A stretch of DNA of 64,000 nucleotides from Candidatus Yanofskybacteria bacterium (GCA_016181175.1 JACOZV010000004.1:7718-71717); one strand, 5' to 3'; positions 1-40,398 are shown, numbered from the stretch's first letter. The notes: generated by a model not told the origin, from the sequence alone. A program made the numbers and translations.

Positions 1-28
1 AATTAAAAAACTAGCTCTAGCAATCCCC

Positions 29-60
29 AACCAAAAACCCCGATAACGGGGTTTTTGGTT
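29..60. terminator. Rho-independent terminator hairpin (13-bp stem aaccaaaaacccc/ggggtttttggtt, loop gataac), symmetric A/T flanks
   Basis: Perfect 13-bp inverted repeat with A-tract before and T-tract after; lies downstream of minus-strand tRNA-Trp/rpmG. Confidence 0.6.
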
Positions 61-122
61 GGGTCCTTCCTTCGCGGTCTAGAAGCGGGTTTTACCCGCC
101 GTAGCCCGCTTAGGTGGGCGAA

Positions 123-195
123 GGCGGGGGCGTCCCGACTCGAACGGGAATTGACGGTTTTGGAGACCGTAGTCCTGCCATTGAACGACGCCCCC
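123..195 (-). tRNA. tRNA-Trp (anticodon CCA)
   Basis: Reverse complement folds as cloverleaf: acceptor GGGGGCG/CGCCCCC, D-loop AATGG, anticodon loop CTCCAAA, T-arm TCCCG-TTCGAGT-CGGGA; close to E. coli tRNA-Trp. Confidence 0.85.
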
Positions 196-213
196 AAAAT
201 AGTGCTTAAGGCA

Positions 214-372
214 CTATTTTTTTGTTTCTTTGTGCATCACGTGCTTTCTGCAAAACTTGCAGAATTTCTTCATTTCGATTGTCCGCGTAACCAGTTTCTT
301 ATTTTTCGTAGAAAAATAATTGACTTGCTTGCAGATGCTGCACTTTAATTTTATTAGGTTATCTTGGGACAT
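214..372 (-). CDS. rpmG: 50S ribosomal protein L33
   Basis: 52-aa product MSQDNLIKLKCSICKQVNYFSTKNKKLVTRTIEMKKFCKFCRKHVMHKETKK with L33 Cys pairs and KETK C-terminus; ATG at 370-372; canonical tRNA-Thr/rpmG/tRNA-Trp context. Confidence 0.85.
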   Translation of the reverse strand: MSQDNLIKLKCSICKQVNYFSTKNKKLVTRTIEMKKFCKFCRKHVMHKETKK

Positions 373-390
373 ATTGTTTATTATTAACTT

Positions 391-465
391 TGGAGCCAGC
401 GGTCGGAATCGGACCGACGCTCTTTCCCTTACCATGGGAGTGCTTTACCACTAAGCTACGCTGGC
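391..465 (-). tRNA. tRNA-Thr (anticodon GGT), CCA encoded
   Basis: rc = GCCAGCG TA GCTT AGTGGTA AAGC A CTCCC ATGGTAA GGGAA AGAGC GTCGG TCCGATT CCGAC CGCTGGC T CCA. Confidence 0.85.
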
Positions 466-469
466 ATAA

Positions 470-506
470 TACCATGGAGTTGCTCTTCCACTGAGCTACA
501 ACGGCC
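470..506 (-). pseudogene. Truncated tRNA copy (5' half only: acceptor + D-arm + anticodon stem/GGT), Thr-GGT-like
   Basis: rc = GGCCGTTGTAGCTCAGTGGAAGAGCAACTCCATGGTA, then runs directly into the complete tRNA-Thr(GGT); no matching 3' half. Confidence 0.5.
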
Positions 507-523
507 TCACACCTACTTAGCTT
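503..523. repeat. Left terminal inverted repeat (21 bp, ggcctcacacctacttagctt) of GIY-YIG cassette
   Basis: Perfect reverse-complement match to 778-798. Confidence 0.7.
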
Positions 524-776
524 CAACAACACAATTCTTAATTCGCCTTTTAAGTTGCAGGTATGCGTTTCCTCTCAATTTTATACTATATTCTCTATGC
601 TTGGCATCTCCTTGCGAATAATAACTTTCATAGTATATCAGCCACCAAGGAATATTCAACTTTGTGGCTTTAACCAAACCAAAATTGTGTTGTTGGAATC
701 TTAACGTAAGATCGTGGGTATAGCCAAAGTATAATTGGCCATCTTTTTTACTTTTCAAAACATAAAAATAATACAT
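513..776 (-). CDS. GIY-YIG nuclease superfamily protein (UPF0213/YhbQ-like, ~87 aa)
   Basis: MYYFYVLKSKKDGQLYFGYTHDLTLRFQQHN...REYSIK matches the GIY-YIG domain (YVYIL...DGSLYIGYT.DL.RR..EHN...RE..IK); ATG at 774-776; ORF-finder TTG start lies inside the inverted repeat. Confidence 0.75.
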   Translation of the reverse strand: MYYFYVLKSKKDGQLYFGYTHDLTLRFQQHNFGLVKATKLNIPWWLIYYESYYSQGDAKHREYSIKLRGNAYLQLKRRIKNCVVEAK

Positions 777-777
777 A

Positions 778-798
778 AAGCTAAGTAGGTGTGAGGCC
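778..798. repeat. Right terminal inverted repeat (21 bp) of GIY-YIG cassette
   Basis: Perfect reverse complement of 503-523. Confidence 0.7.
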
Positions 799-838
799 AA
801 CGGCCTTTTTTATCAACATTTTTTAACTTTATTTTTAT

Positions 839-853
839 TCTGTGGGGGCGGTA
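839..853. repeat. 15-bp direct repeat ctgtgggggcggtag (copy 1), identical to the 3' end of tRNA-Tyr
   Basis: Exact copy of 1040-1054 (the tRNA-Tyr acceptor/T-arm 3' end on the minus strand). Confidence 0.7.
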
Positions 854-1039
854 GCGTTGAAAACCAACTGCTTGGTTTTCAACGGGAATTTTAGCTTTGC
901 CTTGTGCGAATAGCACGGCAAAGCGTTATAAAAATTCCCATGCACCGTATTCGCTAAAAGCGAACTTGATGCAAATCTGCTGCTTCGCAGCAAGTCCAGA
1001 AACATAATCGCCGTAGGTAGTTATGTTTCTGGACTCTAT
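854..1039. ncRNA. Hairpin-dense 186-bp element (candidate structured RNA or miniature inserted element); strand undetermined
   Basis: Consecutive perfect stems: 13 bp (CGTTGAAAACCAA/TTGGTTTTCAACG), nested GGAATTTT...AAAATTCC with inner GCTTTGCC/GGCAAAGC and GTGC/GCAC, TTCGC/GCGAA, TGCTGC/GCAGCA, 13 bp TCCAGAAACATAA/TTATGTTTCTGGA; no ORF. Confidence 0.35.
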
Positions 1040-1054
1040 CTGTGGGGGCGGTAG
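1040..1054. repeat. 15-bp direct repeat copy 2 (native 3' end of tRNA-Tyr)
   Basis: Identical to 839-853. Confidence 0.7.
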
Positions 1055-1126
1055 GATTTGCACCTACGTAGGCACAAGGCCAGCAGATTTACAGTCTGCC
1101 CTCGTTGACTGCTTGAGTACACCCCC
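1043..1126 (-). tRNA. tRNA-Tyr (anticodon GTA), long variable arm
   Basis: rc = GGGGGTG TA CTC AAGCAGTCAAC GAG G GCAGA CTGTAAA TCTGC TGGCCTTGTGCC (variable hairpin) GTAGG TGCAAAT CCTAC CGCCCCC A. Confidence 0.8.
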
Positions 1127-1142
1127 TATTTTGGCCAACCGA

Positions 1143-1217
1143 TGGAGCCGACCCCGAGATTCGAACTCGGAACCTACGCTTTACAAAAGCGTTGCTCTGC
1201 CGTTGAGCTAGATCGGC
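1143..1217 (-). tRNA. tRNA-Thr (anticodon TGT), CCA encoded
   Basis: rc = GCCGATC TA GCTC AACGGCA GAGC A ACGCT TTTGTAA AGCGT AGGTT CCGAG TTCGAAT CTCGG GGTCGGC T CCA. Confidence 0.85.
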
Positions 1218-1822
1218 AACTTTTCCAATTTTTTTAAGAGTCGTGTGAGTTTGTTCCGAGTTGTTTCGTCCTCCGGATCAAGTTCTGCGGCTTTTTTAAA
1301 AGACTCAACTGCATCGTGCCACTCCTCCATTTTCATATATATATTGCCTAATTTTTTATAAAGCCCAGCGTCCTTTGGATTTGTTGCTATTTCAAGAATC
1401 AACTTATGTTCTTGCTCTTCTAAATCTACTCCCCTGCCACTGTCGCTACTAATCCTGACTTCTTGTTCGGCCTGGGCGGCCGCTTCGCTACTTATCACGC
1501 TCTCGTGATGCATCACTGATTTGCGAACCCTATTGATTAACCGATTGGTGACCGCGTCAAGTTTTAGCGAAAATAGTCTTAATTTCCTCAAAAATTTTTC
1601 AAATTCAGCAAGAAAATTAAGACGATATTGCCTTAAATCTACTTTCTGAATATAGGCAGTGGGCACCGGAAAAAATTCAGCCCAAAAACCAGACTGTTCC
1701 GGCACAACACTCTCAACCACTTCGGGGGTAAGTTTTTTAAGATAAACGAACTTTCGGCTTATAATCCAGCCGATAGAGACTATAGAGAAAATAAAAATAC
1801 CAAATGGAATGAAAAAAAACAT
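1208..1822 (-). CDS. Membrane-anchored protein with C-terminal TPR-like repeats (hypothetical)
   Basis: N-terminal TM (MFFFIPFGIFIFSIVSIGWII), C-terminal KLGNIYMKMEEWHDAVESFKKAAELDPED TPR motif; stop overlaps tRNA-Thr(TGT) by ~10 nt. Confidence 0.55.
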   Translation of the reverse strand: MFFFIPFGIFIFSIVSIGWIISRKFVYLKKLTPEVVESVVPEQSGFWAEFFPVPTAYIQKVDLRQYRLNFLAEFEKFLRKLRLFSLKLDAVTNRLINRVRKSVMHHESVISSEAAAQAEQEVRISSDSGRGVDLEEQEHKLILEIATNPKDAGLYKKLGNIYMKMEEWHDAVESFKKAAELDPEDETTRNKLTRLLKKLEKLPI

Positions 1823-3288: not shown

Positions 3289-6200
3289 TTATTTATAAAA
3301 ATTCCAGAAATTTCCAAAAATATCTAACGCTTTGTCTTTTAACCCCCCCCCCCCCGTAACTTGTATTTCCAAACTGGAATCGCTGAAATTACCGGCCAGA
3401 TCAAAAACTCTGGCAGTTATTTTATGCTTTCCCGACTCAAAAAACGGGACAAGCAACTCCAAAGCAACAGGAAAAAATATTCCATCATCAATCTTAAAAT
3501 AAACAACCGGCTGAACAATTTCCTCGAAACCCACACTGAATTTAAATCTCACAGTCTCGCCGATTTTCACCGACAAAGAACTCGCCTTTATTACTGGCGG
3601 TGCCGGCGGCGTTGAATCAATCATAATTTTGAATTGGGAAACCGGCCCGAGACGGCCATCGGTGTCTTCTGCCTGGAGACGAAAATAGTATATGCTGTCT
3701 TCATCAATGGAGATGTTAAGAAAATTGTCCGAAGTTGAAACGGCTTTGCCCGGTATAAAGTCCGGGGTTTGATTCAACGCATAGTGATAAACGCCGCCTT
3801 CAAGCAACGGCCAAGCCAGCTGAATATCTTTTTTATGATACCAGCGATTGCTGTTGGGATGGCTTGGTGAAAATATGGGTATTATTTCATTAATGCTCGC
3901 GTTGGTTAATCCTTGTCGGGTAATACTGTAAAAAGCGTCACTTGCCGCCCTAAGCACATCGGTCCCCAAGCCGTCATTGGCAAGAACTTGCGTCCCTTCG
4001 GCGAATTTAAGCGAAGCCCCGCCCACAGTTAACGGCTGCACTACAAGCTCGGCTACCGTACCGGACGGTTCGGAAAATCCGGGATTAGGAACGCCGCAAA
4101 CAATTGTTACCGTTCCCGCCGCATTATCAATATCTTTTTCCAAAAAAAGTCCGGGATCGCACAAGGAATTGGCCGTCAAAATATCAACTATTTCAAACAC
4201 GCTCGGGTCATATTTTATTACCGCGCTCACGACATTGATAATTTCTCCACCGGTAAGCACCTTTATGGCAATGTTTTTTTCAACAAATTGGTTAATGATA
4301 TCCGCTTCAGGTTCAAATTTAATCGTAGAATTATAGATAGAATACGGCGCTCTTTCTAATTTTATAGAAATGCGGTCCAGTTTGTTGTAACTGATAAAAT
4401 ACATCACGGAAAATAAAGTCAGGGTTATAATTAAAATAGTTGGAATCCGATGCCTATGATGGAAAACACTCAGGAAAAAAGATAAATATATGAAAATCGC
4501 AAGAAAAGCAAGCGCCATAAAACCGGCCAAAACAATGCTATAGAAATTGTGGCTGGTCGGAAAAAGAATAATCGTTCCGCCGGGGCTTCCCTCAATTCCC
4601 GGAAATACGATATTGCTGACAATGTAATATTCCTCGCTTATTTTAAGTTCTTTGGCAAATTTAGGAACTTGTTTGGCAATTAGGTCGGAACCAACCGAGA
4701 AAAAGCTATTCAGTATAAAAATAGTATCCTTATCCTTTAAGCTTGTGCTGATTAAACCCTCCTCTGGAGTATAAAAAATAACATGCGAACCATTCTTCAA
4801 ATACTTGTCCTGAAACCGTACGGCATAAGAATTGTTAAATAAGTTTCCCAGAACAATAGCGCCGATAACTTTGTCATCTTCTAAAATAAGGGAGTTGCTT
4901 ATTGCGGCCAGGGGATTTTTGACCCCACGGACGATTTCAGTAACCGTTTCACCTTTAGCCACCCGCCTTCCTTGGATAGTGGTTTGAAAAACATTATCTC
5001 CGCGTTGATCCGGCAAATGTGAACGAACAAGCACAAATCCGTCCTTGTCAGTTACGGCAATAAAACTAAGTTCCCTTTCTTTTGCTTCAGCTTGCACGAT
5101 GGAGAGAAGCTCCAGCGTATCGCCTGCCTTCAGGGCATCGTTAAGAACTCCTGAAGAGACAATCTCCTCTCTTTGGTCAGAAATGTATTTGAGTTCCTCG
5201 GAAAAAACAGTCTTTAGTTGAATAATTTGTTTATCAGTTGAATAAGAATACCACAAGCCCAAGAGCCAGTTAGAAAATAGCATAATGATTACAAACACCA
5301 GAATGCTTAGCAATATTTCAATCATCTCTTTTTTGTGTATCCAGTCGGTTTTGCTTTTTTTATTTAATTTCTTTTTTTTACGATATTTTTTAATTAAATA
5401 ACTCTTAACTTCATGCCCAGTAGCTAGAATCTCCTTTTTTGTCGCGACAAAAATGAGCGCAATAATCAAAATAGAGGAAACCAAAAGCCATTCATTTTTA
5501 ATAAAGTTAATGAAGCCGCCGAATATCTTTGTCAAAAAGTCAAAAATTAGTTCGGTAAAAGACCCGGATTTTACCCTAAATGATACTCGGTTAGAATCAA
5601 TAGAAATGGCACTCCTGTCATCAACCGCCTGCGCCGTCACCTCGTGGCGACCTCCTCGTTCCGGCTTAAACTCAACCTGCCAATATCCATTGGCATCGGC
5701 GTGCGTTTCCAGTATGTATTCCGGGTTGACCCTGATGGCAACCCGAACTTTTTGGTTGGGCTTGGCTTTTCCATTTATAGTAATGGTTTCGCCTATTTTA
5801 ACTTGCGGCTTTTCTATTTGATTTAAAATCACCGGCTCTATTGATTGAATCTCCATTTGATAGTCAGATTCTGAATAATTCCCTGCTTTATCAAAAGCTC
5901 TTATGATAATCTTGCGCACCCCTGGCAATTGCAAAGGCATTTTATATAATCCGGCCAACCCCGGTTCTATTTTTAACCAGTCACTCTCACCGATTTTCAT
6001 TTCATATCTATCAATACCAGATGTACCGTCTGAAGTATCAAAAGCGAGTCTGGGTTGCGGGTTGGTTAAGTCCGCCACATCCAATCTGGTTATTTTAAAA
6101 TCTGCGGGTTTTTGGGTATCAACGTTAAACTTAAACGAAGTTACGGGACCTAATCCCGCTGGTGTTTTCGCACGGGCGTTAAAATAAAATTCGCCCTCTC

Positions 6201-6984
6201 CTACATCATCCAGAACTTTTTCTGAAATCGGAGGATCATAGCTTATTATCGGCGGGGAATTGTTTCTTCGGCTCAAAACCAAAATGACCTCGCCGGTATC
6301 TACCGGCAAATCCCATTTGAAAATTGGGTTATTATTTGAATACCACTTTAACTGGTCTGGATGGGTAGACGATGTAATAATCAACTGCTCCGCTGAAACA
6401 GGAGCGGGAGTTGTGACTATTTTGGGCGTTGCTTGAGACGATGCCTGCGGCGATACCGGTGTTACCTTTGGTAATACCGATATTGCCCTTAAAACATAAG
6501 CTCCGCCCGCTAACGATGATAAAACATTCGTACCCTGCCCATCATTGGCTAAAACCGCGCCGGATGAAAAAGAAACTTGAGTAGTTGCCACCGCCTTTGC
6601 CTTGAAGTTTATAGTAAGAATATTGCCTGATGTTCCCGTATATCCAGGATTAAAAACAATGCCGCCGAAATTTATCGTTCCCAGCGCATTGGAAAAATCG
6701 GGTTCTTGCACCCAGAGACTGAAAATAGAACCAGTCCTCGTAAGAGACGTAACCGCGAGTTCAGCAGGATTAAATTTTAGTATGCCTACAGCGGCGTTAA
6801 TTGAAACACCGGCGCTATTAATCCTGATAGAAACACTAAAGTTGCTCCCATTATTATAAGTTCCCGAACCTGGAGATATAAAAAGCGTCGCGGCTCGCGC
6901 TAAAGAAAAGGGAAACAGAAACAAAAGCAAAGAAATTGCTGGAATTGCCCACTGCTTTTTAAATTTTATTTTTAACCCCTCCAA
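3289..6984 (-). CDS. Giant (1231 aa) cell-surface protein: signal peptide, N-terminal and C-proximal cohesin-like beta-sandwich domains, central two-TM segment enclosing a sensor-like extracytoplasmic region
   Basis: Signal peptide WAIPAISLLLFLFPFSLARA; two domains each ending in VLANDG.GT.VL; TM helices around aa 500 and 780; TTG start. Confidence 0.75.
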   Translation of the reverse strand: MEGLKIKFKKQWAIPAISLLLFLFPFSLARAATLFISPGSGTYNNGSNFSVSIRINSAGVSINAAVGILKFNPAELAVTSLTRTGSIFSLWVQEPDFSNALGTINFGGIVFNPGYTGTSGNILTINFKAKAVATTQVSFSSGAVLANDGQGTNVLSSLAGGAYVLRAISVLPKVTPVSPQASSQATPKIVTTPAPVSAEQLIITSSTHPDQLKWYSNNNPIFKWDLPVDTGEVILVLSRRNNSPPIISYDPPISEKVLDDVGEGEFYFNARAKTPAGLGPVTSFKFNVDTQKPADFKITRLDVADLTNPQPRLAFDTSDGTSGIDRYEMKIGESDWLKIEPGLAGLYKMPLQLPGVRKIIIRAFDKAGNYSESDYQMEIQSIEPVILNQIEKPQVKIGETITINGKAKPNQKVRVAIRVNPEYILETHADANGYWQVEFKPERGGRHEVTAQAVDDRSAISIDSNRVSFRVKSGSFTELIFDFLTKIFGGFINFIKNEWLLVSSILIIALIFVATKKEILATGHEVKSYLIKKYRKKKKLNKKSKTDWIHKKEMIEILLSILVFVIIMLFSNWLLGLWYSYSTDKQIIQLKTVFSEELKYISDQREEIVSSGVLNDALKAGDTLELLSIVQAEAKERELSFIAVTDKDGFVLVRSHLPDQRGDNVFQTTIQGRRVAKGETVTEIVRGVKNPLAAISNSLILEDDKVIGAIVLGNLFNNSYAVRFQDKYLKNGSHVIFYTPEEGLISTSLKDKDTIFILNSFFSVGSDLIAKQVPKFAKELKISEEYYIVSNIVFPGIEGSPGGTIILFPTSHNFYSIVLAGFMALAFLAIFIYLSFFLSVFHHRHRIPTILIITLTLFSVMYFISYNKLDRISIKLERAPYSIYNSTIKFEPEADIINQFVEKNIAIKVLTGGEIINVVSAVIKYDPSVFEIVDILTANSLCDPGLFLEKDIDNAAGTVTIVCGVPNPGFSEPSGTVAELVVQPLTVGGASLKFAEGTQVLANDGLGTDVLRAASDAFYSITRQGLTNASINEIIPIFSPSHPNSNRWYHKKDIQLAWPLLEGGVYHYALNQTPDFIPGKAVSTSDNFLNISIDEDSIYYFRLQAEDTDGRLGPVSQFKIMIDSTPPAPPVIKASSLSVKIGETVRFKFSVGFEEIVQPVVYFKIDDGIFFPVALELLVPFFESGKHKITARVFDLAGNFSDSSLEIQVTGGGGLKDKALDIFGNFWNFYK
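3343..3355. repeat. Homopolymer C13 (G13 on coding strand) inside the 3' end of the giant gene
   Basis: 13 consecutive C; encodes the GGGG in ...QVTGGGGLKDKALDIFGNFWNFYK, ~20 codons before the stop. Confidence 0.9.
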
Positions 6985-9746: not shown

Positions 9747-9774
9747 AAAACCGCCGCAAAAGCGGCGGTTTTAT
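9747..9774. terminator. Bidirectional rho-independent terminator
   Basis: aaaaCCGCCGCaaaaGCGGCGGtttt. Confidence 0.6.
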
Positions 9775-13339: not shown

Positions 13340-16300
13340 TTAAGTGTCCGGTGAAGTTTCCGAAAGCGGAGATTCTTCTGACGGAGGCGGCTCTGGCGTT
13401 GCTTGCGGTAAGCTTGTTGAATCCGGTTCAGGAGTTGGCTCTTCCACTGGAGGTTGAACCTCTACTTGAGGTTCAACCTCGGCGGATGGCGTAGGTTCCG
13501 GAGGTGGCGATTCTTCTATTATTGGCTCCGCCGTGGACTCTTCGGATACGGATGGTTCTGATTCTGAAGTCGGTTCTATGCTCGACTCCGGAGTTGCCAA
13601 AGATTCGTAATCTTTTGAAGGAATTGGCGTCGGTTCTGGCTGTGAATTATTGAGGATACTCGGAATAACCGAACACTCACCCGGTATGTGAACCAGTTGT
13701 CCCCTTGTCATTCTTACGCAATACGGCTCCCCTGTTTCGGTATCATAAAACGTAATGCCGTTTGGCCGGTCTCGACTCCCTATGGTTAGCGAGTCGGCTT
13801 TAAGCGCCCCTGAGAAAAACGCATTACCTAAACTGTCAAAGGTAATTACCGGCGGACCAGTGCCTCGCCCCAAGCTTGAAGGACCAAATGAAGTAGAGAA
13901 TGAATCTGAAGCAACATTGAAAATACTAAATACGCCGCCATTGGCCAATTTAAACCCGACATCATCATCCACCGGCTCAATGATGTTCACGACCAGCGTA
14001 TCAGTTAAGACCCGCGGTGAAATAATTTCCAATCCGGCTATTATTCTATCAGTATATATTTCCGACAAAGATGTGCTGGCTGTTATTTCCTGCTTGTGAC
14101 TTAACATCTGGGCCAGTACCAGGCGCCCGATATCAATATCTTCTGGTATCTCATCCATATTGACCCCATATTTGCCAAGAACCGACTTTGTCCTGGCTCC
14201 GGTAGAATATGTTGTGGAAATGAACATTAAGATTTTACCTTGGTCTTCAGGAAAACCATCAGATTGGCTAGCAACACTGACGTCAAAATCTTCCAATGCC
14301 GAACCAATTATTAATCCCGCTTTATCAGTCCTTACTGCGACACCCGGAACATCGGATGCGGTAAGCAAATCGCCTTTTTTAATTTCACCATTTGCAGTTG
14401 AAACCTTAACAAGCGCCGTTCCCGACAAAGCTACGGGTTGGGTATCCGACGGCCTTTGGTCGTTCAGGTCTTTATTCATTATTTGAAATGGATCAGTAGA
14501 GATAACCCCAACTACACGGTCTTCAGGGGTTGCTTTTTTAAGAACTGCTGTTTTCTGGAGACCTTGTTTTGAGTCATATGAGGTGTCATTGGGGCCTACA
14601 GCCACCACATCACCGGGCTCTACACCATCTTCAACCACGAAATATTCTGCCAAGTCGGAACCATTGGTACCCGAAAGAGCCCAGACGATAACTGCACCGG
14701 CTGCTCCGGCGGCACCTTTTCCAAGGTTTGCAGAACCACCGCCTCCAGCGCCACCTGGAGCTGCTCCGATTGTTCCATTGCCATTATGAGCTGAGCCAGC
14801 CCCCGAACCCCCGCCGCCACCCGCACCACCCATCGGACTTCCTCCACCATCGCCGCCACCGGCGCCGGCAACTGCGGCAAAACCTGAACCGCCATTGCTT
14901 CCGCTTAGATTTAAGGTACCGCCAATTGCACTCCCCCCCACACCACCAACACCATTGGCAAGTCCTAATCCCCCGCCATTACCTTGAATATTAGCCCCAC
15001 CATTAAGTGCGCCTGTAAATCTGCTTAAATTTCCAACAACTCCGACGGTGCCACCGGTACCAACAACGATAGACACATTTCCGTTGACAGCCGTTATTCC
15101 CGCACTATACCCACCACCACCACCACCACCACCACCGTTTATCGCCGCAGCATTATTTCCACCAGCACCGCCGCCCCATACTTCCACATAAACCTGATTA
15201 ACATACGCCTGTTTAACCCAATTGCCATTAGCAGTGAAGGCGTTTATAGCTTCAATACCAAATCCCGCATCACCGCTACCAGCAGAGGTATCATCATCAC
15301 CACACGAAAATTTTCCTGTTGTTATATCCCAACCCAATGTTTGGGTATCACCATCGCAATCAACTAACCCCGAACCTCTGACTCCCCCGTTAAAGGAAGC
15401 TGAACCGACTGAAGTAAGGGCGGCCAGAGCGTGAAGTCCTTTGGATATGTCGAAAATGTAAAGGCTTGAGTCAAAGTTGAATCCAGGGTCAGGTCATCGC
15501 CGGTCAAGGTGAGATCGGTGCCGGCGGTAAGATTGGTGTGATTTGATATGTCTATGCCTTGGGAAGCTATGGTTAGGGTTGGAAAGGCGGTGAAAGTTAA
15601 GGCTCCGCCCAGACCGGCTAATACAGTGGCGCCGGCTGAATCATCCCACATGAAGAATCTGTCGGCGTTGGGGTCGGTAAGAGTGGCTCCAGTGCCGCCG
15701 TCGGCTAAAGAAACATCTGTGCCGCCGACTGTGTAGACGTTGGATCCGCCTATTGTAAGGGCGGAAACGCTGGCGGTTTTTATCTCAAGAGTATTACTGA
15801 ATTGATTGGAAGCGTTACTGAATGTCCAGCTTCCGGTGATAGTTTCATTGGCGGCACGACTTGCAGGACCGGTAGTCCAGTCTAATGTGATGGTGCCGTT
15901 GGAAGCGGTATTGCTGAAATTGAACATGTTAGCATCGAATTGTAAGGAAGCGATGGCGAAATATGTGCCGGCGGTTACGGCGATGTCTAAGCCGTCGGAA
16001 ACGTTGCCGCCTGAACCGCCGCCGGTATTCGGCGGAAGGCCAGGTATATGTAACGCCATTGAATGTGGTGGCGCCGGATATTGAGGCCGTACCGCCAACT
16101 TCAAAAGCGGTATTGGTAAGAGCACCCGCATTAATACCCAGTTTTGAAAGTGTTGATGTTAACTCTAAACTTCCGGAAATTGAAGCGCTACTTCCAAAAC
16201 TCACAAATCCGTCAAATGAAACTGAACCGTCCACCTCAAGACCACCGGAGATTAGAAGATCGTTAGCGGAATAAATTGCATCGGAATGAGTCGTTGTCGC

Positions 16301-18294: not shown

Positions 18295-18852
18295 ATGCAA
18301 TTAGACCATCGTGCTTTATTTTTAAAATCTGGCACAAGCGGGTTAAATGCGCCGGGCGGTAAATCATCTGGGCCGGTTTTTGAGTTTGGCCCCGGTTGGG
18401 GAAGCAAAATAAAAAAGTGGTTTAAAAAATATATTCTCGGCGGTCACTGCACGCTCTGTCGGGCAACGCGTTATGTTCTTCTTTTTGGTCTGGTACTTCT
18501 GGTATTTGGCGGACCACAATTGAAGTCGCTGCTGGACAGCAAAAAACAGCAAGCCCTAATAAGTGAAACGAGAATAACCGAAACGGCTCAATCCGGCGAC
18601 AGTAAAATCAAAATGGCCCGCCGCGCCCTTACGGGTTATCTTAACAAATTCACCGACACGACCGTTACAAACGGCCAGAGAGTTTTCATTGAAACAGTAT
18701 TGAGCCAAACAATAACTGACGAATTGAAACCTGGCGCTCAAATAGATTTTGATTTTAAAAGCGTTGAGACCCTTATAGAGCAGTCACGCTTACTCACTCC
18801 TTCCCAGCTCCAAAAATGGGAGGACTACGCCAAAAAGGTGAAGTTTTATTAA
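18295..18852 (+). CDS. Hypothetical membrane-anchored protein (185 aa)
   Basis: TM VLLFGLVLLVFGG; preceded by AT-rich region; start uncertain. Confidence 0.4.
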   Translation: MQLDHRALFLKSGTSGLNAPGGKSSGPVFEFGPGWGSKIKKWFKKYILGGHCTLCRATRYVLLFGLVLLVFGGPQLKSLLDSKKQQALISETRITETAQSGDSKIKMARRALTGYLNKFTDTTVTNGQRVFIETVLSQTITDELKPGAQIDFDFKSVETLIEQSRLLTPSQLQKWEDYAKKVKFY

Positions 18853-18856
18853 ATCA

Positions 18857-18879
18857 AAACCCGCCTTATGGCGGGTTTT
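18857..18879. terminator. Bidirectional terminator between convergent genes
   Basis: aaaaCCCGCCttatGGCGGGtttt. Confidence 0.65.
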
Positions 18880-18881
18880 GA

Positions 18882-19568
18882 TTACTCTTTTTTCTCTGAC
18901 GACACCGGTGCTTCTTCCGCAACTTCCTCTTCGGGTTTTTCTTTCTTAATAACCTCAACCTCCTCCGGCGCGGTCGTAACCGGTGTCTCAAGTTGAGCCT
19001 TGAGTTCTTCTTCGGAAATCGGTTCCTGTACCAAAGCCACTATAACTTCGGGTTCAACCTTCACCTCAAGTTTTTTTGAGATTGATAAATCTTTTACCAA
19101 AATTTGGCTTTTAAATTCCGCGAGTACAGAGATATCTACATCGATCTGGTGGGGCAAATCTTGCGGAAAACCCTCAACTTCTATTTCAGACAGGTTTTTC
19201 ACTAAAATTCCGCCCAAGCCCTTAACCGCTGGGGATTCACCTATAAAATTAAGCTGAATTTTTGCATGTATTTTTTCATCCAAACGCACTTTATAAAAAT
19301 CTGCGTGCAAAAAAATATCATTTAACGGGTCACGAACAACATCGTGAATAATAGTAGGATGATCCTGTCCATCAACATTGAGATAAATTACAGTGGATTC
19401 ACCGGCTTCAGTATAAACCCGCTCAAATTCATTAACTGGCACCTGAATTGATAGTGGCTTAAAACCGTGACCATAAACTACGGCCGGCACAAAACCGCGT
19501 CGTCTAAGCGACTTCACCTGCCTGCCAATAATACTTCTCGGTTCCGCTTGTAGTATAACTCTTTCCAT
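18882..19568 (-). CDS. rplY: 50S ribosomal protein L25 / general stress protein Ctc
   Basis: RGFVPAVVYGHGFKPLSIQV...beta-barrel plus acidic C-terminal tail typical of Ctc. Confidence 0.8.
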   Translation of the reverse strand: MERVILQAEPRSIIGRQVKSLRRRGFVPAVVYGHGFKPLSIQVPVNEFERVYTEAGESTVIYLNVDGQDHPTIIHDVVRDPLNDIFLHADFYKVRLDEKIHAKIQLNFIGESPAVKGLGGILVKNLSEIEVEGFPQDLPHQIDVDISVLAEFKSQILVKDLSISKKLEVKVEPEVIVALVQEPISEEELKAQLETPVTTAPEEVEVIKKEKPEEEVAEEAPVSSEKKE

Positions 19569-19779: not shown

Positions 19780-21080
<1,301 letters not shown>

Positions 21081-21088
21081 GATTGAGT

Positions 21089-21313: not shown

Positions 21314-21946
21314 ATGTGCAACCGGGTCAACTGTTGGCAAGCCAGTAATGGCATGCTTAAATGCACACAACATGAATCCCGAACGAGACAGCCTTCGCCA
21401 ACAACAAGGAAGGGTTACAATGGCTATTTAATCGGGAATAATAAAGTTATTTTTAATAGGCACGGAAATGATTTACACAACAAATCATTTCCTGTCTCGT
21501 ACGGGATGAAACTCCTCGGCCGCGCCTACAAGCAAAAAAATGGCTGGACCTGCGGCCCAGCGGTAACCAAAATAATCCTGAATTATTCAGGCAAAACTTG
21601 CCTGGACACCAACTTGGCTAAAGAACTTAAAACCACACCGTCGGGAACTTCAAATAGTCAATTAGTTAAATTTCTAAAAAAGAAAGGTGTAAAATTTAGA
21701 GTAAGAGAGGGAGCGAGCCTAGACGCCCTGAAAAGGTTCTCAAAAAAAAGTTTGGTTCTAGTTACTTATTGGATTCCCAACCACAAAGAACATCATTACT
21801 CAATCGTAAAAAAAGTTTCCTCAAAAAGAATTTATTTCCACGACACCTGGTTCGGCGCCAACCACAGTTATACTATTGGACACTTCCGCAAAAATTGGTG
21901 GGATGATGAAGCTAAAAGCAGCTGGCTATTGGCTGTTAAAAAATAG
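21314..21946 (+). CDS. Papain-like cysteine peptidase (C39-like) domain protein
   Basis: Catalytic Cys context QKNGWTCGPAV and downstream His (EHHYSIVKK); real start may be internal (MKLLGRAYK). Confidence 0.45.
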   Translation: MCNRVNCWQASNGMLKCTQHESRTRQPSPTTRKGYNGYLIGNNKVIFNRHGNDLHNKSFPVSYGMKLLGRAYKQKNGWTCGPAVTKIILNYSGKTCLDTNLAKELKTTPSGTSNSQLVKFLKKKGVKFRVREGASLDALKRFSKKSLVLVTYWIPNHKEHHYSIVKKVSSKRIYFHDTWFGANHSYTIGHFRKNWWDDEAKSSWLLAVKK

Positions 21947-21975
21947 CCCAGACAAATCGTCTGGGCTATTTTTTA
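21938..21975. terminator. Bidirectional terminator
   Basis: aaaaaaTAGCCCAGAcaaatcgTCTGGGCTAtttttt. Confidence 0.65.
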
Positions 21976-26229: not shown

Positions 26230-26742
26230 CTAGCCCCAGCGAACGGCGGCGGATATAATAAATCCCATCGCGCCGATGGCTAATCCCAGAAAAGCAATAA
26301 ATCCGGCTAATAACATAGCCGTTTTGCGTAGCTTGAATTTTTCAAATTCTTCTTTATCTACAAACGCCAAAATCATTGCCGTTATTGCTAGTGGCAAAAT
26401 AAACAAAAAAATATGCTCTTTGGCTTCCATCGCGATAGCATGTGCCCAAGGCGCCGTTCCCTTTAGAATTACCGGCTTCACCATCTTGCCGTAATTAACA
26501 ACATAGTAATAACCGCCGAGTAGCCAGGTTAAAGCAAAACCGATTACGCCGATTATGGAAGCCCATTTAATTCTGGCATGATTTTGCGACTTGCCGGCTT
26601 GTCCAGCTCCAGTTTGGGACTGTCCAAACTGGAGCTGGACCAACTCCCCTAAGTACCACAAAAAAGCGTCTATGCCGGCAATTGCAAAAGCAAGGTGTAA
26701 TCCCACCAATACAGGTTTATATGTTAAAAATGAAAGTATCAT
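26230..26742 (-). CDS. Hypothetical polytopic membrane protein (170 aa)
   Basis: Multiple TM helices; contains an in-frame 17-bp perfect inverted repeat. Confidence 0.45.
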   Translation of the reverse strand: MILSFLTYKPVLVGLHLAFAIAGIDAFLWYLGELVQLQFGQSQTGAGQAGKSQNHARIKWASIIGVIGFALTWLLGGYYYVVNYGKMVKPVILKGTAPWAHAIAMEAKEHIFLFILPLAITAMILAFVDKEEFEKFKLRKTAMLLAGFIAFLGLAIGAMGFIISAAVRWG

Positions 26743-32796: not shown

Positions 32797-32848
32797 CCGC
32801 CATAACAGGCGGTTTTTTTATTAAAAAAAACCGCCTGTTATGGGGCGG
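32797..32848. terminator. Long bidirectional terminator between convergent genes
   Basis: CCATAACAGGCGGttttttt...aaaaaaaaCCGCCTGTTATGG. Confidence 0.65.
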
Positions 32849-39435: not shown

Positions 39436-40398
39436 TTAATTCTCAAACAATATCGGTATTTCTATGGCATCATCATATTCAGGAAGACCCGAAGGATTGT
39501 CTTTTCTTAAAATAAGTGCTCCCCTTCTGCTGAAGTCACCGATATATTCCGGCTTTTTAAATTCAATCACTCCTTCAAACGGAACAAAGTCCTCGGTCAT
39601 CCAATCTTTTTTCGCCATTGCATACCCTTCGGAGATAATTCTTCCGTCCCAATCCGTCAGCACAATTGGAAAACTTGCTTCAAAAAACCAAATACCCCTA
39701 GCCTGGCCCTTCACGGTCAAGGGACTTGAAACAGTATCATTAGCTTTGACATTTTCAACCTTGATTAAGTCTTCCTTGGGACAAAGCGCAAACTCGCAAT
39801 TTGGTCCAGTCCTACCAACATACGATCCATCTGAACAAAGTTTAGCATCCTGCGTACAGAAAACAGTGTCGGGTGTTTTATTGGCTTGCCAAATGGAAAA
39901 ATTAAGATAGGCCGCAAAACTCACCCAGAGAATATATGGCACTAGCAAATATGCCGCGGAATGGAAAATTTTGTAAAACACAACGATTGTCCAGACAATC
40001 GCAAACCAGAGCGCTACGATATCAACAAATGCCCAACCGAGATTATTTATGGTGAGCCATGTCGAACCATGCAATCCGAAAAAAATAATTGACCAGATAG
40101 CATTCAAGAATAACTGGATAAAAAACACCGCGATGGCCATTTTCCACATCCACAACATTCTAACATTCTGCAGAATGTTAGAATGTTGTTTCCAAACAAG
40201 GAAAAGCGCGATACCCATTAGTGCGTAAAGTGTTGTCCACGCCGGCCCAAATACCCATGCCGGTGGGTTAAGTGCCGGCTTTGTGAGTGTCTCATACCAG
40301 GTTGGAATTGCCGAGATCGTAAACACGGAACCAAGAATACCAGCAAGTTCGGATACGCCGACTGCAATGAATAACTTAGTAAGATTATTTAAACGCAT
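39436..40398 (-). CDS. TspO/MBR (tryptophan-rich sensory protein) fused to C-terminal Gmad2 Ig-like domain
   Basis: N-terminal KPALNPPAWVFGPAWTTLYALMGIALFL TspO signature; C-terminal soluble Cys-containing beta domain. Confidence 0.6.
   Translation of the reverse strand: MRLNNLTKLFIAVGVSELAGILGSVFTISAIPTWYETLTKPALNPPAWVFGPAWTTLYALMGIALFLVWKQHSNILQNVRMLWMWKMAIAVFFIQLFLNAIWSIIFFGLHGSTWLTINNLGWAFVDIVALWFAIVWTIVVFYKIFHSAAYLLVPYILWVSFAAYLNFSIWQANKTPDTVFCTQDAKLCSDGSYVGRTGPNCEFALCPKEDLIKVENVKANDTVSSPLTVKGQARGIWFFEASFPIVLTDWDGRIISEGYAMAKKDWMTEDFVPFEGVIEFKKPEYIGDFSRRGALILRKDNPSGLPEYDDAIEIPILFEN

Follow-up and report, generated by a model that had tools for sequence, protein, structure and literature searches.

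We analysed a 64,000-nt stretch of DNA from a Candidatus Yanofskybacteria bacterium (GCA_016181175.1, JACOZV010000004.1:7718-71717), hereafter called the window, in whose coordinates all positions are given; the loci of related genomes are labelled L004-L050. The bacterium belongs to the ultra-small Patescibacteria, and the EF-Ts of the window is 100% identical to a protein to which NCBI gives the name Candidatus Yanofskybacteria. At 839-1054, directly 3' of a tRNA-Tyr gene, the window holds a hairpin-dense element flanked by a direct repeat of the tRNA 3' end. The five genes of the locus and the element all lie on the minus strand. The tRNA cluster starts with tRNA-Thr(UGU) (1143-1217; ARAGORN and Rfam tRNA, 66.7 bits), which is followed by tRNA-Tyr(GUA) (1042/1043-1126; ARAGORN and Rfam), a complete gene without an encoded CCA. 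An intact tRNA-Thr(GGU) (391-465; ARAGORN and Rfam) lies 575 bp further on and forms the downstream limit of a hypervariable spacer, and rpmG (214-372) and tRNA-Trp (123-195) come after it. We read the element, with a probability of about one half, as one unit of a tRNA-operon trailer RNA similar in design to the RtT repeats of Escherichia coli, with repeats that would allow units to be gained, lost and swapped.

The original prediction, made from the sequence alone, had described a 15-bp repeat at 839-853 and 1040-1054 with 186 bp between the copies. The 15-mer CTGTGGGGGCGGTAG does occur exactly twice in the window, and the second copy lies at 1040-1054 as described (chance expectation 0.01; two matches in 0 of 100 shuffles). 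The first copy, however, lies at 840-854, the exact repeat is 16 bp long (TCTGTGGGGGCGGTAG, 839-854 and 1039-1054, spacing 200), and 184 bp (855-1038) separate the two 16-bp copies. The repeat comprises the final 12 nt of tRNA-Tyr (the T-stem 3' strand CUAC, the acceptor 3' strand CGCCCCC and the discriminator A) and 4 nt of trailer. Copy 1 (1039-1054; minus strand CTACCGCCCCCACAGA) is the true tRNA-Tyr end with its 4 trailer nucleotides, and copy 2 (839-854) is the duplicated tRNA-Tyr 3' end, which forms the 3' boundary of the unit. The ends of the unit are not inverted repeats of each other. Sequence comparison placed an AT-rich trailer, ATAAAAATAAAG, at 827-838. Together with the last nucleotide of copy 2 it gives the motif GAATAAAAAT, which also follows the distal copy in L004 and L019, and it is presumed to be the original trailer of tRNA-Tyr.

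The minimum free energy (MFE) of the body was -89 kcal/mol on the minus strand, compared with -48 +/- 4 kcal/mol for shuffled sequences (z = -9.7), and -101.6 kcal/mol on the plus strand (z = -9.1). On the minus strand, 139 of 182 nt (76%) were base-paired, in agreement with the hairpin density first noticed. The stems measure 15 bp, 6 bp, 6+7 bp (nested), 9+8+4 bp (nested) and 12-13 bp. One of the two stems initially read as 13 bp was recovered at 12-13 bp, but the other is 15 bp and the nested set is 9+8+4 and not 8+8+4 bp.

Reading from the tRNA outwards on the minus strand, the 5' strand of a closing helix, GAUAG (1036-1040), pairs in the MFE structures with CUACC of copy 2 (850-854) at 4 of 5 positions. 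Hairpin H1 (993-1035) has a perfect 15-bp stem (993-1007/1021-1035) and a 13-nt loop. H2 (978-992; UGCUGC/GCAGCA) has a 6-bp stem that is invariant in the three genomes carrying this sequence family. It overlaps an antisense segment, CAGCAGAUUUGCA (970-982), located 61 nt past the tRNA-Tyr end. This segment complements the anticodon loop and 3' stem of tRNA-Tyr (1081-1093) by 12 Watson-Crick pairs of 13, the remaining position being G-U; its last 8 nt match the T-loop in antisense as well, and it is invariant in the window, L019 and L020. The fold continues with the nested hairpins H3 (6 bp) and H4 (7 bp), each with one G-U pair (941-973), and with H5 (GGGAAUUUU/AAAAUUCCC, 9 bp) around H6 (8+4 bp) at 884-939. 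Finally, H7 (856-883), a perfect 12-13-bp stem (855-867/872-884) with a GCAG loop, abuts copy 2.

No terminator-like site was found on the minus strand at 839-1054, including the junction between tRNA-Tyr and the element, and a stack of terminators was rejected as an identity for this region. The statement that the element contains no open reading frame (ORF) needed qualification: mechanical ORFs of 36-56 aa are present, but they lose their frame in the homologues and none is conserved. A coding mini-gene was rejected on this ground. Perfect hairpins of 11-20 bp recur every few kb in the window, many with A-tract/T-tract arms (e.g. 26-63, 9747-9772, 13450-13480, 18852-18883, 21049-21088, 21937-21975, 26601-26640, 32800-32843 and 40152-40189), and are probably bidirectional terminators. 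Long perfect stems are thus habitual in this genome, which lessens the weight that one stem of the element can carry.

Relatives were collected via EF-Ts homologues and by searching GTDB genomes once for a 26-nt stretch of tRNA-Tyr (25 Yanofskybacteria/Paceibacteria loci); the tRNA-Tyr sequence was 100% identical in all relatives read. We named the sequence family of the window element type A. It was found at the same site in two Yanofskybacteria/Paceibacteria metagenome-assembled genomes, L019 (EF-Ts 74% identical) and L020 (57%), and in both it is followed by a copy of the tRNA-Tyr 3' end. The repeat is thus present beside tRNA-Tyr in relatives; its absence there would, by the original prediction, have counted against the idea. 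The start of type A, and nothing more, stands at the end of the L030 contig. The family is rare (3-4 of ~26 related genomes). A metagenome scan with a gapped type A pattern added nothing, returning L019's own contig and one false positive in a coding gene. The unit had also been proposed for a search elsewhere in the genome, and no other copy turned up, either within the 64-kb window or at sites other than tRNA 3' ends in ~30 loci. Exact-protein look-ups of L33 and of an 87-aa GIY-YIG protein of the locus gave no matches, and those of the TPR protein and EF-Ts returned short contigs breaking at tRNAs and nothing more.

Independent MFE folds of the three type A sequences gave the same five-module layout. 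RNAalifold on their alignment predicted 65 pairs, with 94.6% of cells paired. Covariation, which had been named as a check at the outset, was present: both sides had changed in 12 of the 65 pairs, compared with 4.5 +/- 1.6 in shuffles (0 of 500 reached this number) and 0-2 in slid controls. The double changes were concentrated in H7 (4 of 12 pairs), H4 (4 of 7 pairs) and H1, where L019 has one compensatory change from A-U to U-A. The closing helix forms 5 of 5 pairs in L019 (GGUAG/CUACC) and 4 of 5 in the window (GAUAG/CUACC), and none was predicted in L020. A 23-nt block covering H2 and the next linker (UGCUGCG..GCAGCAGAUUUGC) is conserved in all three sequences except in the hairpin loop, even in L020. 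DNA identity of the window to L019 was 85% for type A, 73% for tsf and 71% for rpmG. From three sequences, these comparisons are good evidence, not proof, that the type A structure is maintained, and DNA-level processes could likewise preserve long perfect stems.

Since the late 1970s, the RtT repeats have stood as an unexplained curiosity at the tyrT locus of E. coli. We took the layout of the window element to resemble these 178-bp repeats distal to tyrT and then tested the resemblance. The order of the K-12 locus is tyrT-RtT-tyrV-RtT-RtT-RtT, with rttR annotated as a small RNA (sRNA) gene beside tyrV. As a positive control, the Rfam model RF00391 scored 133-137 bits on each K-12 unit (gathering score 45 bits). 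In the RF00391 consensus, the closing helix is formed by GGGGAAGGAU, which is antisense to the T-stem/acceptor of tRNA-Tyr, and AUCCUUCCCC of the direct 3'-end copy; the CCA of the duplicated copy supplies the final base of the annotated rttR. Measured in the same way, the inverted and direct segments lie at +63 and +163 in E. coli (AATCCTTCCCCCACCA at +163) and at +61 and +189 in the window.

The two elements share several features. Both stand directly 3' of tRNA-Tyr on the same strand, with a unit of 178 bp in E. coli and 200 in the window; both end in a direct copy of the tRNA 3' end (16 or more nt in E. coli, 12 nt, or 16 with trailer, in the window); and both carry an inverted tRNA-derived segment ~60 nt past the tRNA. 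Tandem units are possible, as seen in the four RtT of K-12 and in L020, where a unit of type A and one of a second family stand together. Closure of the domain by an upstream strand that pairs with the duplicated T-stem/acceptor strand belongs to the RtT consensus and is predicted, with a short helix, for the window and L019 but not for L020. The differences are also clear. The window element shows neither sequence nor covariance-model similarity to RtT, and it is a row of five perfect hairpins whereas RtT is built of P1-P4. Its closing helix has 4-5 bp compared with ~9 bp, and its antisense segment matches the anticodon arm instead of the T arm. It lacks the CCA because the tRNA genes of these candidate phyla radiation (CPR) bacteria do not encode one. 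Only a single unit is present in the window, the hosts belong to Patescibacteria and Enterobacteria, respectively, and the tpr mini-ORF has no counterpart in the window. In the spacer between tyrU and glyT, which belongs to the orthologous operon of E. coli, no duplicated tRNA end was found. A search of Rfam with window 1-1400 at E <= 10 gave no credible family for the element and no RtT hit. Given the shared architecture, the missing RtT match and the different internal fold, we file the element as an RtT-like design and not as a member of RF00391.

The design is not limited to one sequence family. In this analysis we defined a second hairpin-rich family, type B, which is absent from Rfam and unrelated in sequence to type A. 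It occupies the same tRNA-Tyr site in L024 and L031 (EF-Ts 88%), L004 (83%) and L015 (73%). The closest relatives of the window are without type A, and another of them, L008 (EF-Ts 86%), has a small ORF there. At tRNA-Tyr, a copy of the 3' end of this tRNA comes after type B, and L004 has the AT-rich trailer of the window behind it as well; in L020, the two different units (A+B) stand in tandem. Type B shares with type A the insertion point, the distal tRNA 3'-end copy, the AT-rich trailer, the wealth of hairpins and the lack of an ORF. It differs in sequence, in the layout of the closing helix and in its occurrence after tRNA-Trp, where its ends are Trp-specific. Among the 84 tRNAs of the fetched loci that were screened, copies of a tRNA's own 3' end were found downstream of tRNA-Tyr and tRNA-Trp only, and the tRNA-Trp cases (L016, L027 and L033) are all type B.

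The ends of type B follow the host tRNA. A segment of 10-15 nt near its start is antisense to the T-loop, T-stem and acceptor of the host (GGTAGGATTTGCA at tRNA-Tyr, TGCTAGGATTCGAAC at tRNA-Trp), and its end is a direct copy of the host tRNA's 3' end. Both segments are matched to the host in type B at tRNA-Tyr (L004, L015, L023 and L033) and at tRNA-Trp in L033; just one of them has the exact form in L016 and L027 (tRNA-Trp) and L028 (tRNA-Tyr). A variable hairpin comes first in the layout, followed by a closing helix of 9-12 bp between the anti-T-arm segment and the distal copy. The match of this segment to the real tRNA runs over 13-15 nt, but that to the distal copy over only 7-9 nt; pairing with the distal copy alone fails to explain why the segment is conserved. 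L033 carries type B at both tRNAs, and the two paralogues share 34 consensus pairs, of which 8 show compensatory changes. Those in the closing helix are host-specific, and several give G-U pairs on the tRNA-sense strand. The hairpin loop GAGUCCACYGGGUUGA is conserved between the two, atop a fully covarying stem. The consensus of six type B sequences (MAFFT and RNAalifold) was weak except in the closing helix. No Rfam model, RtT included, matched type B or the loci of seven relatives.

Starting from the observed anatomy, conservation and host-tRNA-specific ends, and from the lack of a terminator-like site on the tRNA strand, we propose the following course. The unit would be transcribed within the operon tRNA-Thr / tRNA-Tyr / ... 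/ tRNA-Thr / rpmG / tRNA-Trp, and 3' processing of the tRNA would release its 5' end. The RNA would adopt a compact multi-hairpin fold, closed by a short helix between the first bases of the trailer and the duplicated T-stem/acceptor strand. The latter, a copy of the tRNA 3' strand, may serve as a tRNA-like 3' boundary, comparable to rttR, which ends at the duplicated CCA in K-12. At the DNA level, the direct repeat and the invariant tRNA gene would provide homology for recombination, so that units can be lost, duplicated in tandem or swapped between genomes. Recombination at the repeats would explain the tandems in L020 and E. coli, the losses, and the presence of type B, a small ORF or nothing in close relatives. 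Of the three options offered in the original prediction, a structured sRNA co-transcribed with the tRNA operon is thus the best supported, by covariation, by the RtT layout and by the missing terminator, although co-transcription itself is inferred.

Several points weigh against an RtT-like trailer RNA. Co-transcription and release of the unit are deductions. As neither the element, nor type B, nor the loci of the seven relatives matched any Rfam model, the link to RtT rests on architecture and not on demonstrated homology. The closing helix of the window has just 4 of 5 bp, and its antisense block is complementary to the anticodon arm, where RtT and type B match the T arm. Stems that are perfect over 13-15 bp are commoner in DNA palindromes than in functional RNAs, and the plus strand folds at least as stably as the minus strand. 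The patchy distribution indicates a dispensable element, and the 12 doubly changed pairs come from three sequences, with a shuffle control that is not a probability. The model itself is also poorly understood: its mode of action was still called unknown in a 2024 bioRxiv preprint, which also noted stress-linked signals (10.1101/2024.07.17.603846). A comparative study counts rttR among the tyrT repeat units and infers that some strains have lost it (PMC3318445).

The main rival reading is a miniature, non-autonomous DNA element, or the remnant of a larger one, that integrated site-specifically at the tRNA-Tyr 3' end. The 16-bp repeat would then be the identity block of attL and attR, the left and right attachment sites, the hairpins would be DNA-level sites or an imported terminator, and the proximal copy would restore the tRNA. 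Integrative elements such as prophages and islands commonly sit at tRNA 3' ends, where they are flanked by direct repeats, keep the tRNA intact through the proximal copy and make the site variable. The window shares with them a tRNA 3' end repeated directly at either side of the insert, which is the classic footprint of insertion, as well as the intact tRNA and the variable site: in 26 related genomes, the spacer between tRNA-Tyr and tRNA-Thr(GGU) measures 9 to 575 nt, and what it contains is interchangeable. The motif GAATAAAAAT after the distal copy resembles the original trailer in the window, L004 and L019, a serine recombinase gene abuts the tRNA-Tyr 3' end in L026, and two different units follow one another in L020. 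The window and L019 are closer in type A (85%) than in the flanking genes, while closer relatives have type B, a pattern that fits horizontal movement.

The insert, however, is 184 bp long, contains neither a recombinase or integrase gene nor a conserved ORF, and has no free form that we could find. No further copy turned up in the window or, among ~30 loci, off tRNA 3' ends, and the metagenome scan gave only L019 itself and a false positive. Three scans of IMG/VR, with a type A pattern, a type B pattern and a 17-mer from the 3' end of tRNA-Tyr, gave either no hits or hits to unrelated tRNAs and coding sequence, so that no plausible attP, the attachment site of the free form, was seen. Integration would leave unexplained the extra inverted segment and its specificity for the host tRNA at Tyr and Trp, and also the G-U pairs on the sense strand. 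The insert further differs from such elements in its conserved, covarying structure. Furthermore, the L033 paralogues differ by many compensatory changes and are therefore old, not recent hops. The duplicated attachment site of the original prediction thus keeps its repeat, its hot spot and the L026 recombinase but lacks an integrase, an attP in IMG/VR and a second copy, and we consider integration unlikely, though not negligible. Smaller mobile elements (miniature inverted-repeat transposable elements, repetitive extragenic palindromic-like sequences and small transposons) were rejected: there is one copy per 64 kb, terminal inverted repeats are missing and the repeat is 16 bp.

A functionless recombination scar in a hot spot of homing endonucleases, in which the repair of breaks by patching left partial tRNA copies, appears less probable. 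On this account the palindromes would be kept perfect by template switching at the DNA level, which mimics compensatory change, and the unusually long perfect stems that fold on both strands are consistent with it. The surroundings would fit as well: a GIY-YIG cassette and the remnant 5' exon of a tRNA-Thr share the spacer in the window, relatives have GIY-YIG, LAGLIDADG and HNH genes or remnants, and what remains of a GIY-YIG gene in L025 stands between tRNA-Tyr and a distal copy in the style of type B. The distal copy nevertheless follows H7 in the window, L019 and L020, which share no endonuclease gene, and thus belongs to the element. Assignment of the distal copy to the GIY-YIG cassette was likewise rejected, because L019 and L020 have the copy without the cassette and GIY-YIG homologues elsewhere come without tRNA fragments. 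A scar would also not account for a design that recurs in three unrelated families (A, B and RtT), at two tRNAs and in two phyla, for the conservation of unpaired blocks, including the L033 loop over its covarying stem, or for elements that are more conserved than the adjacent protein genes.

We regard as quite improbable a cis-acting switch on the maturation of tRNA-Tyr, in which a non-tRNA fold competes with the cloverleaf. In that fold the tRNA arm would be bound by the antisense segment and the 5' acceptor strand of the tRNA by the distal copy, and the choice between the folds would set the level of mature tRNA-Tyr or of downstream read-through. MFE folds of tRNA plus element did pick the alternative pairing in the window, in L004 and in L033 at tRNA-Trp. 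The fold of E. coli tyrV with RtT likewise placed the acceptor strand on the distal copy and the 3' strand of the T-arm on the antisense segment, and L028, which has no distal copy, formed the antisense pairing to the T-arm alone. The longer match of the type B antisense segment to the tRNA (13-15 nt vs 7-9 nt with the distal copy) points the same way. These are thermodynamic predictions, however, and co-transcriptional folding, tertiary structure and modifications favour the cloverleaf; no sensor or ligand is in sight, and many relatives with an identical tRNA-Tyr are without the element. Finally, the third of the original options, a degenerate self-splicing intron or a small self-cleaving ribozyme joined to the tRNA, deserves hardly any credence: excision between the copies would regenerate the same tRNA end, and relatives have a group-I-like intron in the neighbouring tRNA-Thr(GGU) (22.5 bits, below the gathering score), but no Rfam family matches the element at E <= 10, the tRNA-Tyr gene is complete and uninterrupted and needs no splicing, and the architecture is a simple row of hairpins with no recognisable catalytic core.

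The element is best described, then, as an RtT-like design of a known but poorly understood kind, whose recurrence across phyla and at two tRNAs was unexpected. Finding the same design in a distant phylum, with unrelated sequence and with matching ends at two tRNAs, suggests selection or a general mechanism. A bolder and rather doubtful idea is that types A and B and the E. coli RtT might form one widespread and so far unrecognised class of tRNA-templated trailer RNAs, with one inverted and one direct segment copied from or matched to the host tRNA. If so, its RNAs could act specifically on the host tRNA, for instance by switching its folding or processing, or by serving as a sponge or decoy of tRNA-Tyr and tRNA-Trp or of the factors that bind or cleave them; as an alternative, the class might spread between tRNA genes with its ends regenerated from the target. 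sRNAs from the spacers and trailers of tRNA operons exist, such as 3'ETS-leuZ in E. coli, and the tRNA-like t-elements of plant mitochondria are processing signals. The trailer unit would resemble these as a by-product of a tRNA operon with ends defined by tRNA-processing enzymes; they differ in being short and in having no duplicated tRNA 3' end at their boundary. Literature searches on tRNA introns and endonucleases in CPR bacteria and on free-standing GIY-YIG genes near tRNAs yielded nothing specific, and no comparable CPR element was found in the searchable literature. Types A and B offer independent families for comparative and experimental work on such trailers. They flag a class of structured non-coding elements that is missing from Rfam, and they warn that the 36-56-aa ORFs in the element should not be called genes.

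The spacer between tRNA-Tyr and tRNA-Thr in Paceibacteria is a hot spot of selfish elements, with GIY-YIG, LAGLIDADG and HNH endonucleases, a serine recombinase and a tRNA intron. Short spacers of 9-52 nt (L032, L011, L021 and L017) have trailers that cannot be aligned, and the closest relatives have other inserts. In L026, an ORF for a 519-aa large serine recombinase (3440-4999) runs into the tRNA-Tyr 3' end, which suggests that an integrated element there uses the tRNA-Tyr end as its attachment site. This is the one recombinase seen at the site, and the sequence it flanks is unrelated. L029 has a 204-aa ORF (5118-5732) with a LAGLIDADG-like motif, read by eye, in the stretch from tRNA-Tyr to the next genes; remnants of its C-terminal part are left in L014 and L023, just upstream of tRNA-Thr(GGU). 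In L008, an HNH ORF (6292-6540; from precomputed Pfam data) sits on the upstream side of tRNA-Thr(UGU). Up to three endonuclease families (GIY-YIG, LAGLIDADG and HNH) thus appear to colonise the tRNA cluster. A conserved small ORF of ~45-60 aa (MIKKIGSKY...G.Y.TK.EA..RL.Q.EFFK) fills the spacer in L008, L010, L012, L016, L025 and L027, all of which are without type A. Hairpin-dense modules without a duplicated tRNA end stand between tRNA-Tyr and GIY-YIG genes in L018 (~150 nt, with a 21-bp outer inverted repeat around inner hairpins) and in L014 (~95 nt).

The GIY-YIG gene of the window (513-776, minus strand; 87 aa) lies outside the element, in a cassette at 503-798 that is bounded by a perfect 21-bp inverted repeat (arms 503-523/778-798) and has an inner 13-bp repeat. 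Homologues with 66-90% identity are found at unrelated intergenic sites in many CPR lineages, for example between pilC and pilin genes. In L041, L044 and L045-L050 (~1470-1780), the outer and inner inverted repeats are kept with compensatory changes. Its sequence suggests a selfish endonuclease cassette of ~300 bp whose terminal stem is conserved. Beside it, at 470-505 on the minus strand, repeat searches and comparison with relatives identified a remnant of the 5' half (5' exon) of a GCCGUUG-type tRNA-Thr(GGU). The remnant is 36 nt long, stops at the anticodon loop and lies 4 nt upstream of the intact, GCCAGCG-type tRNA-Thr(GGU). In five relatives (L009 4994-5215, L014, L022, L023 and L025), the GCCGUUG-type gene contains a group-I-like intron of ~200 nt at the point where the remnant ends (Intron_gpI, 22.5 bits, E = 9.5e-4, under the gathering score), and these intron-bearing genes were overlooked by ARAGORN.

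At gathering thresholds, Rfam on the whole window gave tRNAs and one LOOT RNA (RF03000; 59144-59260, minus strand; 71.1 bits vs a gathering score of 46.4), and nothing else. Between rpmG and tRNA-Trp, where the window has a 25-nt hairpin, L004 (6756-6935) has ~180 nt with long-range complementarity (GCCACUCGCCAUAGUACC ... GGCACUAUGGCUCGC). Finally, a structured segment of ~60 nt (CUUCGCCCACCUAAGCGGGCUACGGCGGGUAAAACCCGCU...GCGAAGG; 64-122, minus strand) lies between tRNA-Trp and the terminator hairpin at 26-63 and is conserved in L024, L015 and L033. In L033, it comes after the distal copy of the tRNA-Trp 3' end and therefore marks the original trailer of that tRNA.

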